Source of the DNA: Bacillota bacterium | Lineage (GTDB): Bacteria > Bacillota > UBA4882 > JBLNCG01 | NCBI GenBank assembly: GCA_050260475.1 | Contig: JBLNCG010000028.1 | Coordinates: forward strand, 64,283-128,282 | Direction of reading: 5' to 3' | DNA: 64,000 nucleotides | Part shown: positions 3,899 to 45,389 of the stretch, in pieces | Layout of the letters: every line of letters starts with the position of its first letter | Position numbering within the stretch: position 1 is the first letter of the stretch | The notes under the pieces: generated by a model | The model's input: the letters and a program-made list of their open reading frames with translations, nothing else | Database searches by the model: none | What the model was told of the DNA's origin: nothing | Translations under genes and position numbers: made by a program

Positions 3899-4019
3899 TA
3901 AACAGAACCGTGAATCCCGTTTGGGAATAAAAGCTGTATGTTGATTCACGTCAGCTTATTTTTATTACTTCGTTCGCTGACGTGAACGACTACTTGAAAA
4001 TTGCATAAAAGAACCGGGG

Positions 4020-4255
4020 CGCTTATTCTTGGAAGCTTAATAGGGAAACAGGTGCGATTCCTGTGCGGTCCCGCCACTGTAAGGGGGAGCCTCCTGGTAA
4101 ATGCCACTTTCCGTCACTATTGGCGCAGTATTCCAAGTGCCGGGGGGGAAGGCGCCAGGTGGACGAAGAACCCGAGTCAGGAGACCTGCCCCGGTTTCGC
4201 TGCGGCAAATGGGCCGCTGCACATCTCACAACCTACGGACGATAGGAGGGTGAAA
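4020..4255 (+). promoter_or_regulatory. cobalamin (AdoCbl) riboswitch aptamer
   Basis: Conserved core AATAGGGAA...GGTGCGATTCC...GCGGTCCCGCCACTGTAAGGGGGAG with the B12 box GCCACTG. Located in the leader of a TonB-dependent BtuB-like receptor gene. Confidence 0.85.
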
Positions 4256-4276
4256 AATGAGCATTTATTTTGCCTT

Positions 4277-4312
4277 TGATCCGGATCCGGGTTAAAGGCA
4301 TTTTTTATTAAA
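4277..4312 (+). terminator. riboswitch expression-platform intrinsic terminator
   Basis: GCCTTTGATCCGGATCCGGGTTAAAGGC stem (contains the palindrome CCGGATCCGG) followed by CATTTTTTATT. Confidence 0.6.
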
Positions 4313-4428
4313 GGCAATTGCGTTTTACCTTGATTCAAGGTCTTGCCATTAAATATAGTGTATGGCTACCATTAGGCTATCGATATTTCGCGGCAAGGCG
4401 TAAAATTATCACAACAACGCAAATTGCT
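4313..4428 (+). repeat. intergenic repeat family A, copy 1 (TIR-bounded, ~116 bp)
   Basis: AAGGCAATTGCGTT..TACC...GTCTTGCC...ATTAGGCTATCGATATTT...GGCAAGG...CAACAACGCAAATTGCT. Ends are inverted repeats of each other (GCAATTGCGTTGTTA / TAACAACGCAATTGC). An inner 7-bp inverted repeat GTCTTGC/GCAAGAC is also present. Four more copies occur in the window. Confidence 0.8.
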
Positions 4429-4482
4429 TATTCACACTACAAAATCATTCTTTTTAAAAATGACTGAATGGAGGCAAGGTAT

Positions 4483-6288
4483 ATGAATTTTAAAAAAGTC
4501 ATCATCGGCATATTGATTTTGGTATTATTTTCAATGGGAATAATCATGGCGTGGGCGGAGGAAGGGCACGATGATGCCGGAGAGGCTGATGAAGAAATAG
4601 TGGTAACCGCCACCCGAACCGCCGAATCTTCCGAGGAGTCTCCGGGAATGACTGAAACAGTTTCCGGCGAGGAGGTTGAAAGTAAAAAGGATGTGCCGGA
4701 AGCCCTGCGGGATGAAGGAGTCACTGTGTCCTTTTACGGAGGGGACAGTTCTGCCGCTGCACTGCAGCTAGACGGATGCTCTGCGGAGCAGACCGTGATC
4801 TTGCTCAATGGAGTTCCGTTGAGCGGCGGATGCAGCGGGATCTATGATTTGAGTTTTTTCCCTTCCGATGGCGTGGAGAGAATTGAAATCGCACACGGCC
4901 CTTTGTCTTCGTTGCACGGAGCCAACGCTTTAGGCGGCGCCCTTAATATCTTTACGGACTTGACCGGCGAGGCCTGCGTTAAAATAATGAAACGCTATGG
5001 CGATTTTTCCTCGGTGCAGACCGGTTTTCTTTTGCAAGACAACGAATTTGGAATCGCGATGGGACAGTCATCGACCCAAGGTTACCGCAATGATCCGGCT
5101 ACGGATACATATTTGTGCGGACAAATCGATCTTTGGACGAAAGATGAAAACAGTTGCAGCTTTTATCTTTATTTGCTGGGGAAAAATGCCGGGATACCGG
5201 GTTCCACATTTTATCCGTCAAATGGCCGGGAGCATGACAGCAGTTTTCTGGGAAGCATCCTGGGCAGAAAAAAAACCGGCGGGATAAAGTGGGAATACAG
5301 CCTTTATCGGCAGCAGTCGCAGTTGAATTACCAGGACAGCGCCTCTGTCGGCAACCATTTCGCTCTGCGGGAGGGTGCGGACCTGGCATGCTTCTACGAA
5401 GGGAAAAAACACACTTTCCTTACGGGTCTGCATTGCAACAGGGATTATTACGAAAGCAACGTCTCCGGTATTCATTCCATGGACAATACGGGCATCTTCT
5501 CCCAGGACATCTGGAAGATAAACAGCAGAACCACGGCCATTTGCGGTGTCCGGTGGGATCATAACGATGTATATGGATCCGCCTGGTCGCCCAGGATCAA
5601 TTTGATACATGGGCTGTCATCCGATTGGACGGTTAAAATCGGCTACGGCAAAGCTTTCCGGGCTCCGACCATCAACGAATTATACTGGAGTCAACCGGAA
5701 TTGGGAATGAACGGCAATCCGGAACTTAAGCCGGAAAACGGAGAAAGATGGGATGCGGTCCTTCAGTATGGCTCCGGTAAGGATTCAATAGCGATCGATG
5801 TATTCAGAACGGATCTTGCGGACGGCATCAACTGGGAGGCTACGCCGCCTGACTGGTTCTTTACGCCGGAAAACATTCAAAAAATACGCATCAACGGAGT
5901 AACTCTGCAGTGCAAACGGCAGTTTAACGATTGGTTGGGTTTTACTTTAAACAGTCAATGGCTGGATAAAAAAGCCTGGGATGCGGTTGACGCCGATTAC
6001 ACCCGTGATATGAACTATTATGGACGGCGCCGGTTTGCACTGGGATTCGATACCGCCTGGAAATCCTGGACGGTGGATGCAAACTGGCAGTTCACGGGGG
6101 ATCGATACCAGTGGGGCTCTGCAGTGCCGGATTATCACATTTACAACTTATATGCCACATATAAGGCAAGTCCAAATGTGGTTTTTCAGTTGGCAGTGCA
6201 GAACGCTCTCGATGAAATTTATGAGATGCATCAGGGTTATCCCATGCCGGGGAGGGAAATCCGACTGGGATGGATCATCAAAGCATGA
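4483..6288 (+). CDS. btuB: TonB-dependent outer-membrane receptor, BtuB-like (vitamin B12 transporter)
   Basis: Signal peptide, TonB box EIVVTATR, plug then beta-barrel length (~600 aa), aromatic-rich C-terminus. Downstream of the cobalamin riboswitch. RBS GGAGG 8 nt before ATG 4483. Confidence 0.8.
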   Translation: MNFKKVIIGILILVLFSMGIIMAWAEEGHDDAGEADEEIVVTATRTAESSEESPGMTETVSGEEVESKKDVPEALRDEGVTVSFYGGDSSAAALQLDGCSAEQTVILLNGVPLSGGCSGIYDLSFFPSDGVERIEIAHGPLSSLHGANALGGALNIFTDLTGEACVKIMKRYGDFSSVQTGFLLQDNEFGIAMGQSSTQGYRNDPATDTYLCGQIDLWTKDENSCSFYLYLLGKNAGIPGSTFYPSNGREHDSSFLGSILGRKKTGGIKWEYSLYRQQSQLNYQDSASVGNHFALREGADLACFYEGKKHTFLTGLHCNRDYYESNVSGIHSMDNTGIFSQDIWKINSRTTAICGVRWDHNDVYGSAWSPRINLIHGLSSDWTVKIGYGKAFRAPTINELYWSQPELGMNGNPELKPENGERWDAVLQYGSGKDSIAIDVFRTDLADGINWEATPPDWFFTPENIQKIRINGVTLQCKRQFNDWLGFTLNSQWLDKKAWDAVDADYTRDMNYYGRRRFALGFDTAWKSWTVDANWQFTGDRYQWGSAVPDYHIYNLYATYKASPNVVFQLAVQNALDEIYEMHQGYPMPGREIRLGWIIKA

Positions 6289-7847: not shown

Positions 7848-7876
7848 TTGACTTCCGTATGCCTCATGGTTATACT
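7848..7876 (+). promoter_or_regulatory. sigma-A type promoter TTGACT-17-TATACT
   Basis: Near-consensus -35 TTGACT (7848-7853), 17-nt spacer, -10 TATACT (7871-7876). Drives transcription into repeat A copy 2 and ylxM-ffh. Confidence 0.6.
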
Positions 7877-7905
7877 ATATCCTGTCAAGGGAAAATGCTT
7901 GACAA

Positions 7906-8019
7906 GGCAATTGCGTTGTTACCTTAATTCAAGTCTTGCACTTAAATATAATGTATAATTACTATTAGGCTATCGATATTTTAGCAAGACGTAAAATCAT
8001 CATAACAACGTATATTGCT
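7906..8019 (+). repeat. intergenic repeat family A, copy 2
   Basis: Same architecture as copy 1: AAGGCAATTGCGTTGTTACC...GTCTTGC...ATTAGGCTATCGATATTT...GCAAGAC...CATAACAACGTATATTGCTC. Confidence 0.8.
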
Positions 8020-8057
8020 CCTTGAAAGGATTTTTTCAACCGGGCCGGTGAAAAAAC

Positions 8058-12725: not shown

Positions 12726-12823
12726 CCGTTTTGGAAAATCGCGATATCTCTAGGCCGTACCAATTAAGGTACGCTCGGCGTGCCTAAGTTAAGGCACGTT
12801 CCTTTAACGCGTTTTGCGATTGC
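12726..12823 (-). repeat. intergenic repeat family C, copy 1 (~98 bp, TIR-bounded)
   Basis: Ends ATCGCGATTTTCCAAAACGG / AACGCGTTTTGCGATTG are inverted repeats of each other. Two internal perfect hairpins: GTACC-aattaa-GGTAC and GTGCCT-aagtta-AGGCAC. The reverse complement aligns with copy 2 at 44713-44784. Confidence 0.7.
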
Positions 12824-13029
12824 TCAACTTTTACACTTTGATTTTAATGCAGCAAAATCAATATTTTAGGGATATTAAATTTGAAAAAATCGTTAAAAGA
12901 TCGTCTTTTCTTGTCCCGCAAGATCATTTGGATATTTTTCATTGCTGATTTTGATTTTTTTGTTTTGCATTGCAAGAACAGAAAGATATGACTTTGCGCC
13001 GGGCTAAATTGATATGCGAAATTTGAGTG
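12823..13029 (+). repeat. intergenic repeat family B, copy 1 (~207 bp)
   Basis: Starts CTCAACTTTT, ends CGAAATTTGAGTG (imperfect TIR). Contains the perfect 24-bp palindrome TTGATTTTAATGCAGCAAAATCAA (12838-12861) and a second palindrome TCTTGTCCCGCAAGA. Aligns with 16192-16349. Confidence 0.7.
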
Positions 13030-15256: not shown

Positions 15257-15937
15257 ATGCAAGAATCCGCATTACACAATTTATACAACCGGATGTTTCC
15301 GGGTTTAAAAACCAAACTTCACGAGGAGAAAAAACGCCTTCATCTGATGTTGAGTTATGAACGCCGCTGCCTCAGGAGGGGTTACTCCAAAGTGGCGGGG
15401 ATTGATGAGGCTGGCAGGGGCCCGCTGGCCGGCCCGGTGATAGCCGCGGCGGCGATTTTGCCTTCCGGCATCAAGCCATATGGCCTTAATGATTCCAAGC
15501 AAATGACCAAAGGACAACGGGAGTATCTGTACCAGCATCTGCTGGATTCCGGAGCTGCCATAGCATGGGCCGGTGTGGATGCGGAAGAAATCGATGTTCT
15601 CAACATTTACCGGGCTACCATAAAAGCCATGCGATTAGCGTTGGAAAAACTCATCCCTCAACCGGACTTTTTACTAATAGACGGAATGGGGATCGATCTG
15701 GGAATGCCTGGAGAGGCCATTGTAAAAGGAGATGCGAAATCGTTGTCCATTGCCGCGGCTTCTGTAGTGGCAAAAGTTGCCCGGGATCGGATTATGGAGG
15801 AATACGCCAGTGTTTATCCTGAATACGGTTTTGATAAACATAAAGGCTATCCGACCCCTGAACACTACCGTATCCTGCAAAAGCTGGGCCCTTGCAAAAT
15901 ACACCGGTTGTCTTTCCGGCTTAAGGAAAAGGCTTAA
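15257..15937 (+). CDS. rnhB: ribonuclease HII
   Basis: GIDEAGRGPLAGPV catalytic motif. Start chosen at ATG 15257 (GGGAAGGCGG RBS). The long upstream in-frame extension lacks homology. Confidence 0.85.
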   Translation: MQESALHNLYNRMFPGLKTKLHEEKKRLHLMLSYERRCLRRGYSKVAGIDEAGRGPLAGPVIAAAAILPSGIKPYGLNDSKQMTKGQREYLYQHLLDSGAAIAWAGVDAEEIDVLNIYRATIKAMRLALEKLIPQPDFLLIDGMGIDLGMPGEAIVKGDAKSLSIAAASVVAKVARDRIMEEYASVYPEYGFDKHKGYPTPEHYRILQKLGPCKIHRLSFRLKEKA

Positions 15938-15941
15938 ACAG

Positions 15942-16058
15942 GGCAATCTGCGTTGTTAAGATAATTTTACGCCTTGCCACGGAATATCGATAGCCTAATA
16001 GTAGCCATATACTATATTTACTGGCAAGACCTAGTATTAAGGTAAAAAAGCAATTGCC
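15942..16058 (-). repeat. intergenic repeat family A, copy 3 (inverted orientation)
   Basis: The reverse complement aligns along the full length with copies 1 and 2 (…AAGGCAATTGC…ATTAGGCTATCGATATT…CAACGCAGATTGCCC). Confidence 0.8.
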
Positions 16059-16162
16059 TTAACAGGTAAAACTTTAAACAAAAAAAAAGGGTATTAAGTT
16101 TTGGCAACAAACGCCGATTTTAAGATTAAGACCAGCCGAACGATCTATAACATCCCCCCCAT

Positions 16163-16187
16163 AACCCCGCGGAAGCGGGGTTTTTTC
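16163..16187 (+). terminator. rho-independent terminator
   Basis: CCCCGC-ggaa-GCGGGG followed by TTTTTT. Confidence 0.75.
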
Positions 16188-16191
16188 CGAA

Positions 16192-16349
16192 CTCAACTTT
16201 CGCACCTTGATTTTAATGCGGCAAAATCAATATTAAATTGAAAAAATCGTTAAAACATTCGTCTGTTCTTGTTACGCAAGATCATAATGTTTTGAATTTA
16301 TATTAATTGATATGATTTTGCTGCGCTCTAATCGTATACGAAAGTTGAG
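16192..16349 (+). repeat. intergenic repeat family B, copy 2 (~158 bp)
   Basis: CTCAACTTTCG...CGAAAGTTGAG 11-bp perfect TIRs. Contains the palindrome TTGATTTTAATGCGGCAAAATCAA (16207-16230) and TCTTGTTACGCAAGA. Confidence 0.75.
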
Positions 16350-16361
16350 TCGCGAATATAA

Positions 16362-17522
16362 TCATATGGATTTAAATACCGCGATGCAATTGTTGCCTAC
16401 CACTACCAGATAGCCGAGGCCGATGGAAGCATGTCTGGAATATTCATTATATTTTTCCAACAGGACTGATTCATATAACTGTTTGTCCGCTGAATATATT
16501 TCTCCGGAAATCAAGCGGCGTCCCGCCAAAGGGTCAAAAGAGCGGTAATAAACCATTCCGTTGGCGCTGAATATATAACTGGTGTTGCCGCCGGCGACGG
16601 CATTCCAGTGTATTTTTCCAGTCAAGGCATCCAGTGCGAAAATTTTGCCTGTGGTGCAGTGAGCTATCAGGTAATTCTGATATAGGGTGTAATGATTGAT
16701 ATTTCCCTCTAACCGCATCTGCCAAATGGTTTTTCCGGTAGTTTCACTGAGGGCGTGAATTAGATAATCCGAAGTCCCGACAAATACCATCCCCTGGGAA
16801 AGGACAGGATGGTTTGCGCCCCGGACCTTTGTTTTCCATATGATATCCCCGTTTTTAGGGGATAATGCGATCACTTCCGTAAATGAGCCGCTTATGTCGT
16901 TAGAGCTTACTGAAGTGAAACAGATGATATCGTTGTTTACCGCGAATGCGTTGGAGTTAACGCCCTGATATACTTTTTTCCAAATTGTGTCGCCATTGCT
17001 TGCATTAAGCGCAAAGAAATCAATACCGGAGGATCTTTTTCCCATCAGATATAGTTTATCATGGCAAAGCAGTGGAGGATAATGGTAATCGCTTAAAAAA
17101 GTCTTAGCCCAGAGTTCCTTTCCATTAAAGGCGTCATAGCAAAAAAGCGTGCCCTTTTTAGTTAATACTATAAGTTTTCCCTGATAAAATACAGGTTCAA
17201 GAAAACTTTCGAAATATGAAGTTTCCCAAGATACTTTGCCGGTCGCGATATTATAAGCGATCAGTTCCTGATTTTGCGTCAGTATGAAAAATTTGCCTCC
17301 GCCGATGATCGGTTCGGAACAAAAAACAGGGTTGTCGACGCGGGGCGGAATGCTCCAAACGAAAGTATAAGGAACCTTCGCGGATTTTTCGCCGGTATTC
17401 GCCCTGGTGCCGGAACCGTCGCAGCCGAACATCGGCCAGTTATCGGCGGATTCTGTCGCTGCCATGCCCGATCCTGTCAGCAATAGTAAAAGGAACAATA
17501 GTGGCGAGATTTTTTTATACAT
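16362..17522 (-). CDS. secreted PQQ-repeat beta-propeller protein (BamB-like)
   Basis: Signal peptide MYKKISPLLFLLLLLTGSGMAA. Repeated YAL/YAxD-G-W beta-propeller blades. Perfect RBS AAGGGAGG 7 nt before ATG 17522. Confidence 0.7.
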   Translation of the reverse strand: MYKKISPLLFLLLLLTGSGMAATESADNWPMFGCDGSGTRANTGEKSAKVPYTFVWSIPPRVDNPVFCSEPIIGGGKFFILTQNQELIAYNIATGKVSWETSYFESFLEPVFYQGKLIVLTKKGTLFCYDAFNGKELWAKTFLSDYHYPPLLCHDKLYLMGKRSSGIDFFALNASNGDTIWKKVYQGVNSNAFAVNNDIICFTSVSSNDISGSFTEVIALSPKNGDIIWKTKVRGANHPVLSQGMVFVGTSDYLIHALSETTGKTIWQMRLEGNINHYTLYQNYLIAHCTTGKIFALDALTGKIHWNAVAGGNTSYIFSANGMVYYRSFDPLAGRRLISGEIYSADKQLYESVLLEKYNEYSRHASIGLGYLVVVGNNCIAVFKSI

Positions 17523-17608
17523 GGCCGGACCTCCCTTCGACGACACATATATTCTGCTTTGTTCGATATAATCCTGCTCAAGCCAATGCTTTTCTATAAA
17601 AACTTGTA

Positions 17609-17647: not shown

Positions 17648-17722
<75 letters not shown>

Positions 17723-19388: not shown

Positions 19389-19913
19389 ATGGCTTTTTGT
19401 GCAATCCGGAGGATTCTGGTCATATTGATATTAACCGTCATAGGGATGGCCGGCATATTTTTCGTATTCGCAAATCGAAGTGCGATATTCAATCCCCCCA
19501 GTATCACTGCGAAGACAATAGTTGAATATGAGATGTTTTTTGATTGTCTACATTCGATGCGATGGCATAAAACTGTTCCCGGTGAATGGATTGGAATGCG
19601 GAGAAACGATCTTTCCCGGAAATTGATATTTTGGAAACTGTTGGCGTTCGATGGGGGAAAAGTTATAGTCCGCCGGGAATATCACGATTTATGTCAAGCA
19701 TGCAAGGAAAAAAGATATCTGGGTTTGCAAAACCACCAGGTGGCGCTATACAGGGGTATTCCAGGGCTGGGGCGTCTGGAAAAAGTCCTTCCGGACATCC
19801 AGATCAGCGCTTTGCCCATGGAAGAGGTGGATGACCTGAGTAAAGGGATTCCGGTAACCAGCGAGCGTGAAATGTTGCAAATCATAGAAGGGTGGTCGGA
19901 AAAACCGGACTGA
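19389..19913 (+). CDS. hypothetical membrane-anchored protein
   Basis: N-terminal TM helix (ILVILILTVIGMAGIFFVF). The soluble domain has a CxxC pair (CQAC). No recognisable family. Downstream of the PaaK-like gene on the same strand. Confidence 0.45.
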   Translation: MAFCAIRRILVILILTVIGMAGIFFVFANRSAIFNPPSITAKTIVEYEMFFDCLHSMRWHKTVPGEWIGMRRNDLSRKLIFWKLLAFDGGKVIVRREYHDLCQACKEKRYLGLQNHQVALYRGIPGLGRLEKVLPDIQISALPMEEVDDLSKGIPVTSEREMLQIIEGWSEKPD

Positions 19914-23428: not shown

Positions 23429-23446
23429 ATGGTCGTTCACGCCAGC

Positions 23447-23499
23447 TATCGATATTTGGTGGCAAGACGTAAAATTATCATAACAACGCAAATTGCTCT
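23447..23499 (+). repeat. intergenic repeat family A, copy 4 (3' half only, truncated)
   Basis: GCTATCGATATTTGGTGGCAAGACGTAAAATTATCATAACAACGCAAATTGCTC matches the 3' ~55 bp of family A. The 5' arm is absent. Confidence 0.7.
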
Positions 23500-44048: not shown

Positions 44049-44681
44049 TTGAAACGAAAGTCCGGTATGTTTTATGTGATTTCAGGCCCCGCCGGCGCGG
44101 GAAAAAATGCGATTATCGCCAAGTTGTTAAAAAGCCATAAGAATATGTTGTACTCCATTTCCGCAACAACGCGTCCCATGCGCAAAGGAGAAATAAATGG
44201 AGTACATTATTTTTTCCTTGCAAAAGACGAATTTGAAAAAAATATCGCGGAAAACTGTTTTTTGGAATGGGCAAGAGTAAATAATTGCTATTACGGTACT
44301 CCGCGACAATTCATCATGGAAAAAACCGCCATGGGTATGGATGTCATTACGGATATGGATGTTCAGGGCGCCCGCCGCGTCAAACACATTCTTCCTGAAA
44401 CAATTTTAATCTTTATCATTCCACCGTCATATTATCTTTTGGAAAAGCGGCTTAAGCAGCGAAAAACAGAGGATGCCGCCACCATTGAACAACGACTTCA
44501 AATCGCAAGGGAGGAAATAAAAGCCGCCCGGGAATACGATTATCTTGTGATCAACGATAAATTATCCCTTGCTGTAAAGCAAATTAAATCGATTATGTTT
44601 ACGGAAAGATATAAAACAGAGCGTTACGATATGGAACGTCTTATAAAGGATTTTTATTCCAGCGGCATTGACATGGATTGA
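44049..44681 (+). CDS. gmk: guanylate kinase
   Basis: P-loop ISGPAGAGK. TTG start 8 nt after AAGGAGAA. Confidence 0.9.
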   Translation: MKRKSGMFYVISGPAGAGKNAIIAKLLKSHKNMLYSISATTRPMRKGEINGVHYFFLAKDEFEKNIAENCFLEWARVNNCYYGTPRQFIMEKTAMGMDVITDMDVQGARRVKHILPETILIFIIPPSYYLLEKRLKQRKTEDAATIEQRLQIAREEIKAAREYDYLVINDKLSLAVKQIKSIMFTERYKTERYDMERLIKDFYSSGIDMD

Positions 44682-44712
44682 TCACCTAAACCGGGGATTT
44701 AACTTGGCAAAT

Positions 44713-44784
44713 GATTTCGGAAAACGCGTTAAAGGAGCGTGCCTTAACTTAAGCATGGCAGGTTTCGCGATTCTCCGAAATCGG
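44713..44784 (+). repeat. intergenic repeat family C, copy 2 (~72 bp)
   Basis: GATTTCGGAAAACGCGTT...GTGCCTTAACTTAAGCATGGC...TTTCGCGATTCTCCGAAATCGG. Ends form ~17-bp inverted repeats. Aligns with the reverse complement of 12726-12823. Confidence 0.7.
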
Positions 44785-44982
44785 CAGATGTAGGTTCTCA
44801 TAGAAGCGTTGTGATAAGTCGAACTTACCCACGTTTTCCCCTCTCTTCTGCAGAATAAAGGGAGATAGCAAGGCTTCAAAGGTTCAGGGTTACCCTCTTT
44901 ACAAAAGAGATAGTAAGGGTGAGTTTTTTACAGCGCTTATAGAGTGAACCCGGTAAGAACTGATTTGCAGGGAGGGTTATTA

Positions 44983-45180
44983 TTGGAAAACCATTTAAAA
45001 AAAGTGGATTTGCATTGCCGTTATATCCTGGTAAGCGCCATTGCCAAAAGAGCCAGACAGATCATGATGGACAGTCTGAAAAACGGAGACGACAAGGCCA
45101 TGCGTGCAGTCTACCTCGCCCAGAAGGAAATCGAACAAGGAAAACTGCATGTGGAGCCTGGTGCGGCCCTTTATTCATAA
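44983..45180 (+). CDS. rpoZ: DNA-directed RNA polymerase subunit omega
   Basis: LLENHLKKVDLHCRYILVSAIAKRARQI matches the RpoZ core. TTG start 6 nt after CAGGGAGGG. Confidence 0.8.
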   Translation: MENHLKKVDLHCRYILVSAIAKRARQIMMDSLKNGDDKAMRAVYLAQKEIEQGKLHVEPGAALYS

Positions 45181-45237
45181 TTGCCGAAAGCTTTCTTTAA
45201 ATCGCCGTCAGGATATTCGGCAAATGCGCTTATAAGC

Positions 45238-45358
45238 AGAGCAATTTGCATTGTCATTATAATATTACGTCTTGCCGTAAATATCGATAGTCTAATGGCA
45301 GGCCGTACACTATATTTAATGGCACGACCCAGCATTAAAGTAACAACGCAATTGCCTT
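45238..45358 (-). repeat. intergenic repeat family A, copy 5 (inverted orientation)
   Basis: The reverse complement aligns full-length with copy 1 (AAGGCAATTGCGTTGTTAC...CCATTAAATATAGTGTA...CATTAGACTATCGATATTT...GGCAAGACG...CAAATTGCTCTGC). Confidence 0.8.
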
Positions 45359-45389
45359 AAGCAAAAAACATACCGCACTATCTTGGCAG

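Follow-up and report, generated by a model that had tools for sequence, protein, structure and literature searches.

The window analysed here, a stretch of 64,000 nucleotides from a Bacillota genome, contains a cobalamin riboswitch with a sequence of just under 120 bp between its terminator and the coding sequence downstream of it, and similar sequences recur elsewhere in the same window. The question raised by this locus is whether the intervening sequence belongs to the regulatory leader or is a mobile repeat lodged within it. The features concerned are the following:

4000-4207: cobalamin riboswitch (Rfam, at gathering threshold)
4271-4300: riboswitch terminator, with a 13-bp stem and a T-tail
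4484-6288: gene for a TonB-dependent receptor (btuB-like)

Copy 1 of the repeat, designated Family A, occupies the btuB-like leader from the T-tail of the terminator to 56 nt before the ATG, with the RBS located downstream of it. This position, between the riboswitch terminator (4271-4300) and the receptor gene, is the one given in the original prediction, which also described five aligned copies with the character of a MITE/REP-like mobile repeat rather than of a conserved leader. The alignment, together with an nhmmer scan of the 64-kb window using an HMM built from the four full copies, recovers all five close to the positions first assigned to them, four as full copies and one as a 3' half:

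4311-4427, plus strand: copy 1, full, 117 bp (nhmmer 4310-4430; E=1.6e-38)
7904-8020, plus strand: copy 2, full, 117 bp (nhmmer 7903-8022; E=7e-33)
15943-16060, minus strand: copy 3, full, 118 bp (nhmmer 15939-16061; E=2e-38)
45239-45358, minus strand: copy 4, full, 120 bp (nhmmer 45238-45359; E=5e-37)
23445-23498, plus strand: copy 5, 3' half, model positions 69-122 (nhmmer to 23499; E=4e-14)

A sixth copy is not detected by nhmmer in the 64-kb window. The four full copies measure 115-120 bp, with homology spanning about 118 bp of the alignment, and their pairwise identity lies between 77 and 88%. The 12-nt core CTATCGATATTT, when at most one mismatch is allowed, occurs five times in the 64-kb window against 0.48 occurrences expected. 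Conservation of the central core ATTAGGCTATCGATATT, which includes an ATCGAT palindrome, is at least equal to that of the ends. The GC content of the copies is 30-39%, compared with 47.8% for the window and 40.4% for its intergenic DNA. All five copies are intergenic, both orientations are represented and one copy is truncated, exactly as had been described.

The ends of the element, 5'-AAGGCAATTGCGTTGTTA... and ...TAACAACGCAAATTGCTC-3', form imperfect terminal inverted repeats of 16-17 nt, the arms of which pair at 15-16 positions with a 1-nt bulge; in copy 1 one nucleotide has been deleted from the left repeat. Considered as a helix, this outer part consists of 15 pairs and one bulge, with 96.7% of the cells paired over the four copies. 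The inverted ends reported earlier are thus present, but the string then given for the 3' arm, TAACAACGCAATTGCCTT, has to be corrected: that string represents the 5' arm in reverse complement, the form in which it appears in the minus-strand copies. The inner GTCTTGC/GCAAGAC repeat, also part of the original description, is perfect in copy 2 and carries one mismatch in each of copies 1, 3 and 4, which in copies 1 and 3 becomes a G.U pair when the sequence is read as RNA. Neither solo terminal repeats nor a larger element sharing the Family A ends is found in the window.

Further evidence comes from the flanks, which the original prediction had proposed to inspect for target-site duplications. 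When the 9 nt on either side of the element are compared for a common 5-mer, each of the four full copies proves to be bordered by a direct repeat:

4305-4309 and 4428-4432, plus strand: TTATT at copy 1, the left one being part of the riboswitch terminator T-tail
7898-7902 and 8021-8025, plus strand: CTTGA at copy 2
15937-15942 and 16061-16066: CCTGTT at copy 3, in element orientation (AACAGG on the plus strand)
45234-45238 and 45359-45363: TGCTT at copy 4, in element orientation (AAGCA on the plus strand)

These duplications are 5-6 bp long, differ at each full copy and consist of variable, T-rich sequence. The probability of sharing at least 5 bp at a single site is 0.027 for random window positions and 0.033-0.042 for intergenic positions, and the joint chance of duplications at all four full copies is approximately 5e-7 to 3e-6. 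As a control, left and right flanks taken from different copies share 5 bp in one of the 12 mismatched pairs. Judged from these four sites, flanking direct repeats that differ from copy to copy are the sequence signature of transposition.

The junctions themselves can be placed to within 0-3 nt: copies 1 and 2 carry an additional A or C on the left, while a terminal TC is present at the right end of copies 2, 4 and 5 and otherwise absent. If the element and one of its flanking repeats are removed, plausible sites result, as in the case of the riboswitch terminator, which regains its tail GGCATTTTTTATTCAC. The pre-insertion sequences predicted in this way are GGCATTTTTTATTCACACTAC for copy 1, GAAAATGCTTGAAAGGATTTTTTC for copy 2 and, in element orientation, GTTTTACCTGTTTAAGCCTTTTCC for copy 3 and GTATGTTTTTTGCTTATAAGCGCATTTG for copy 4.

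The same flanks bear on the REP half of the earlier assignment. Scattered through intergenic DNA in both orientations and able to form a hairpin, Family A could in principle be a REP/REPIN doublet, for which a RAYT, an IS200/IS605-like Y1 transposase, would be the mover, or else belong to the palindrome-associated elements (PATEs) known from the IS200/IS605 family. Elements mobilized by Y1 transposases generally insert without target-site duplication, beside a fixed target of 4-5 nt, whereas the flanks of Family A are duplicated, by 5-6 bp, and different at every site. PMC3733652 describes REPs as palindromes rich in G+C, 20-40 bp in length, most of which have a GTAG or CGTC head; Family A is about 118 bp long, has 30-39% GC and ends in AAGGCAATTG and CAAATTGCTC. 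An origin of this type is therefore considered very unlikely. The MITE half of the assignment agrees with the inverted ends and the duplications, and the REP half is to be dropped in view of the AT-richness, the length of about 118 bp and the duplications.

The surroundings of the remaining copies make it possible to evaluate the idea of a conserved leader. Besides those at copy 1, the relevant features are:

7848-7876: promoter-like TTGACT-17-TATACT
16362-17546, minus strand: BamB-like gene
44984-45180: rpoZ

Within what is predicted to be the ylxM-ffh 5' UTR, copy 2 follows the promoter-like site at a distance of 28 nt, which agrees with the position downstream of a promoter given in the original prediction. 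Copy 3 begins 5 nt past the rnhB stop codon (15937), antisense to rnhB, and is followed by a terminator-like hairpin at about 16165-16190 and then by the convergent BamB-like gene. Copy 4 is located between rpoZ and coaBC, antisense to both. Copy 5 is flanked by a DUF2905 gene, whose stop codon it follows by 17 nt, and by recO, with 24 nt left between the copy and the ATG.

Copies 1, 2 and 5 are in sense orientation, 24-56 nt upstream of start codons. This arrangement is what would be expected of an immobile cis-regulatory leader, an operator region or an sRNA gene family held in place by selection, and so is the promoter-like TTGATT-18-TATAGT in the interior of one copy, copy 1. The adjoining genes (btuB-like, ylxM-ffh, rnhB/BamB-like, rpoZ/coaBC and recO), however, are functionally unrelated housekeeping genes; the genes next to two of the copies run antisense to them, and one copy is placed between convergent genes. 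Moreover, the duplications vary from site to site and no Rfam family fits. The element is also absent upstream of ylxM in a relative with 64% Ffh identity (contig L083), as well as from 80 distant ffh loci among the matches listed in GTDB species representatives; the L083 relative cannot be counted as an empty site, because it is too distant (Ffh 64%). Selection on an immobile leader is accordingly given very little credence. The preference for a mobile repeat over a conserved leader, already expressed in the original prediction, is borne out by the differing duplications and by the ylxM upstream region of the L083 relative, which lacks the element.

The promoter-like match within copy 1 (4330-4359) has a -35-like hexamer peculiar to that copy, the other copies having TTAATN at this position; should this promoter be active, btuB would be expressed without control by the riboswitch. 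Two further observations concern DNA close to the copies. In the riboswitch expression platform (4228-4300), AGGAGGG resembles a strong RBS and precedes an ORF of 12 codons with its ATG at 4238, MSIYFAFDPDPG with its stop, which overlaps the terminator hairpin at 4271-4300; anti-termination or sequestration is a conceivable role for this segment, as is that of a leader peptide. Between gmk (ending at 44681) and rpoZ (starting at 44984) there is a gap of about 300 bp, 44682-44983, in which no ORF of at least 80 aa and no Rfam match at the gathering threshold is found.

The 20 window ORFs checked against Pfam are all housekeeping, and no transposase is found among them. The earlier statement that the window holds no transposase is upheld for these 20 ORFs, its wording being wider than the set examined. 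Two minus-strand ORFs of 394 aa, suspected of encoding transposases, correspond to the BamB-like protein and an HtrA-like protease.

Prokaryotic MITEs are defined as elements of less than 500 bp with inverted ends of 10-30 bp and duplications of 2-10 bp (PMC10969869, PMC11602168), which are further described as AT-rich and intergenic, with a stem-loop transcript and without a transposase of their own (PMC10969869, PMC11602168). Family A corresponds to this definition, because it is a non-coding repeat family with inverted ends of 16-17 nt, flanking duplications and no transposase among the 20 ORFs. Its length of 115-120 bp falls in the range of about 50-800 bp used for non-coding MITEs, its 15 terminal pairs compare with a minimum of about 10-15 bp, its duplications of 5-6 bp at the four full copies lie within 2-10 bp, and its dispersal amounts to five intergenic, AT-rich copies per 64 kb. 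Very probably, then, Family A is a non-coding, AT-rich prokaryotic MITE family of about 118 bp, which a transposase would move in trans. We regard it as a family not catalogued before, of a kind that is very common, and not as a new kind of system. Among the points that speak against the MITE reading is that the copies have diverged by 12-23%, whereas the four duplications are perfect, which is somewhat unexpected for old insertions, unless the divergence lies mostly between the source copies.

According to the mechanism that we propose, the transposase would come from an insertion sequence (IS) that lies elsewhere in the genome and has the same ends. It would bind both ends of the element, excise or copy it and place it in T-rich DNA between genes, where the target is cut with a stagger of about 5 bp. 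Repair of the staggered cut would generate the flanking duplication. Copy 5 is a decayed, 5'-truncated copy. Where a copy is situated inside a transcription unit it would be co-transcribed to give a long imperfect hairpin; the candidates are copies 1 and 2, in the leaders of the btuB-like gene and of ylxM-ffh respectively, and copy 3, past rnhB and ahead of the terminator-like hairpin. Effects on mRNA stability and processing have been reported for other bacterial MITEs, and by analogy such a hairpin could alter the stability or processing of the mRNA.

Comparison with known elements places Family A close to prokaryotic MITEs in size, inverted ends, duplications, AT-richness, intergenic location, non-coding nature, predicted stem-loop transcript and restriction to a lineage. 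It differs from MITEs in general in that no parent IS is found within the window and its sequence matches nothing in the collections searched. The Correia elements of Neisseria (CREE/NEMIS) are likewise MITEs of 100-157 bp with inverted ends, are often located in co-transcribed 5' leaders and can hold promoter-like motifs, as copy 1 does with TTGATT-18-TATAGT. Their inverted ends, however, extend over 26 bp; they carry an IHF site and duplicate a TA dinucleotide, whereas the duplications of Family A comprise 5-6 bp and are variable and T-rich. RUP of Streptococcus pneumoniae has been linked to an IS630-type transposase with TA duplication. Both RUP and ERIC/IRU of the Enterobacteriaceae resemble Family A as imperfect palindromic intergenic repeats; they are about 107-127 bp long and classed as MITEs (PMC3184786, Table 1), and ERIC-type elements are flanked by a TA motif (PMC3184786). 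The flanks of Family A are repeats of 5-6 bp and not TA, and because of this length they point to a transposase family that differs from the ERIC/RUP type.

The closest analogue in behaviour, so far as the analogy extends, is bcr1, which is restricted to the Bacillus cereus group. In the account given in PMC3184786, bcr1 is an element of about 155 bp with 5-bp direct repeats that is transcribed and has no known transposase, and that forms a cruciform with two stem-loops and compensatory base changes (Okstad 2004, Klevan 2007, via PMC3184786). Family A and bcr1 as described there both reside in Bacillota, as repeats of about 100-150 bp dispersed between genes, and both have 5-bp direct repeats, a predicted stable RNA and no assigned transposase. 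The two differ in that Family A forms one long imperfect hairpin, has classic inverted ends and displays no covariation detected among its four sequences; their host lineages are unrelated, and the likeness is one of descriptions only.

This analogy draws attention to the predicted RNA. Folding gives a long imperfect hairpin for every copy of Family A, the z-scores being -3 to -4.9. For the four full copies, the folding energies of the plus strand and its complement are -35.5/-32.2, -29.5/-29.2, -33.6/-25.5 and -41.2/-28.9 kcal/mol, and for the consensus -27.6 and -14.7 kcal/mol. In the four-copy alignment 94.5% of the cells pair, compared with 35-52% when the partners are slid by 1-3 columns. 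The palindromic architecture that had been suggested, nested inverted repeats folding into a long, imperfectly paired hairpin, is therefore genuine. The covariation score is 0.110 compared with 0.102 for shuffled alignments, with 202 of the 500 shuffles scoring at least as high, a comparison of low power with four sequences. Changes on both sides of a pair occur at only one pair of the stem in the four copies. About half of the stem substitutions keep G.U pairs, and nine of approximately 19 variant stem cells disrupt pairing. Selection on the RNA fold is not supported by these data, because covariation among the four sequences is no higher than in the shuffles.

The same data have to be weighed for a mobile structured RNA resembling bcr1, which would spread as DNA while selection acts on the plus-strand RNA hairpin and core, the transcript having a role such as mRNA stabilisation, processing or regulation. 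Consistent with such an element are the better folding of the plus strand in all four full copies and in the consensus, the G.U pairs just mentioned, the location of copies 1, 2 and 5 in sense just upstream of start codons, the conservation of the core at the level of the ends, and the precedent of bcr1 itself, for which PMC3184786 describes 5-bp direct repeats, transcription and compensatory changes. The strand asymmetry is nevertheless partly built in, because the structure was optimised on the plus strand. The covariation result, with its four sequences and low power, and the disruption of pairing in nearly half of the variant stem cells argue against this explanation, as do the antisense orientation of copy 4 to both neighbours and of copy 3 to rnhB. 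On balance, selection for a bcr1-like RNA appears improbable.

Returning to the MITE interpretation, conservation of the core at least as good as that of the ends is not required by the transposition model. A domesticated role, as a protein-binding site or RNA hairpin module in the btuB-like, ylxM-ffh and recO leaders, can be envisaged because of the conserved core ATTAGGCTATCGATATT and the better-folding plus strand; alternatively, the mover could belong to a type of transposase for which no link with 5-bp-duplicating MITEs of diderm Bacillota has so far been made. We attach only a small likelihood to a departure of this kind from an ordinary MITE.

Regarding a possible coding function, one reading frame is stop-free in copies 1, 3, 4 and 5 despite the AT-richness, with the consensus GNCVVTLILGLAIKYSVWLPLGYRYFVARRKIIITTQIAL. 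A coding role is rejected: indels are not multiples of three, copy 4 is internally frame-shifted, and there is neither a start codon nor an RBS. A peptide profile of this frame retrieves no protein among 5.8 billion, and reveals no further copies via spurious ORFs. The stop-free frame is probably a coincidence of shared ancestry, given the lack of a start codon and the frame shift in copy 4.

The distribution of Family A outside the window was examined in several collections. Cobalamin and one tRNA are the only Rfam 15 matches that reach gathering thresholds in the window, neither of them on Family A, while in a permissive search the best matches over copy 2 have E>=0.97, with scores far below the thresholds. 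The core pattern gives zero matches in GTDB species representatives and in IMG/VR, two core patterns give zero matches in JGI metagenomes, and blastn in distant mode finds no Family A match in plasmids and phages. The statements that the sequence is neither a known RNA family nor a recognised element hold throughout these collections. Approximately 98% of MITE clusters are genus-specific (PMC11602168), and a narrow distribution of Family A is expected for that reason.

The Ffh protein encoded in the window is identical to that of the source metagenome-assembled genome and of the Logan assembly of SRR24035587, the next best of 5.8 billion proteins having 64% identity, and the best identity in GTDB representatives is 59% among the matches listed. 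Judging from these protein sequences, the host is a deep, poorly sampled diderm Bacillota lineage, since its nearest other Ffh is only 64% identical among the 5.8 billion proteins. Diderm genes of the host include the BamB-like gene (16362-17546) and the TonB-dependent receptor gene (4484-6288), and sporulation genes are represented by a BofC domain (19389-19913) and SpoVS (contig L082).

Signs of further copies come from the same Logan assembly. Three contigs of SRR24035587 match the window exactly and have five observable ends, three of which fall inside Family A, at 4362 (copy 1), 7910 (copy 2) and 23473 (copy 5). The remaining two are at 17664, in a tRNA gene, and at 12778, 44 nt before a second repeat family. 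Taking into account that Family A makes up 0.83% of the window, three of five ends would coincide with its copies by chance with P of about 6e-6. Logan assemblies use k=31, and the longest exact stretch common to the window copies is at most 21 nt; given that value of k, breaks inside Family A would imply other, closer copies elsewhere in the sample. This suggests that more Family A copies exist elsewhere, although the breaks could also reflect coverage dips at hairpins rather than extra copies. Logan contigs reach 7.6 kb to the left of the window, and these 7.6 kb contain no Family A copy.

Two side observations relate to the other contig ends. Contig L084 starts at 17664 within the tRNA gene (17648-17719), which fits breaks at sequences repeated in the sample. 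Contig L001 ends 44 nt ahead of the first copy of the second dispersed repeat, designated Family B, which is about 100-120 bp long and roughly 76-80% identical between its two copies:

12823-12940: Family B, first copy, downstream of lepB
16192-16290: Family B, second copy, downstream of Family A copy 3

Both are situated just past terminator-like hairpins, and the family contains an inverted repeat with the arms TTGATTTTAATGC and GCAAAATCAA.

More than 1.4 million MITEs have been recorded in 58.5% of bacterial genomes (PMC11602168), and Family A adds one more family to this very large known class; a new question would be raised only if its conserved core or its hairpin proves functional. For annotation, the finding means that Family A copies should be masked as mobile repeats and not taken for riboswitch expression platforms, leaders or sRNAs. 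The repeat also seems to fragment short-read assemblies of its host. Since most MITE sequences are confined to a single genus, this uncultured, diderm, spore-gene-bearing Bacillota lineage could be tracked in metagenomes with the 118-bp model as a marker.
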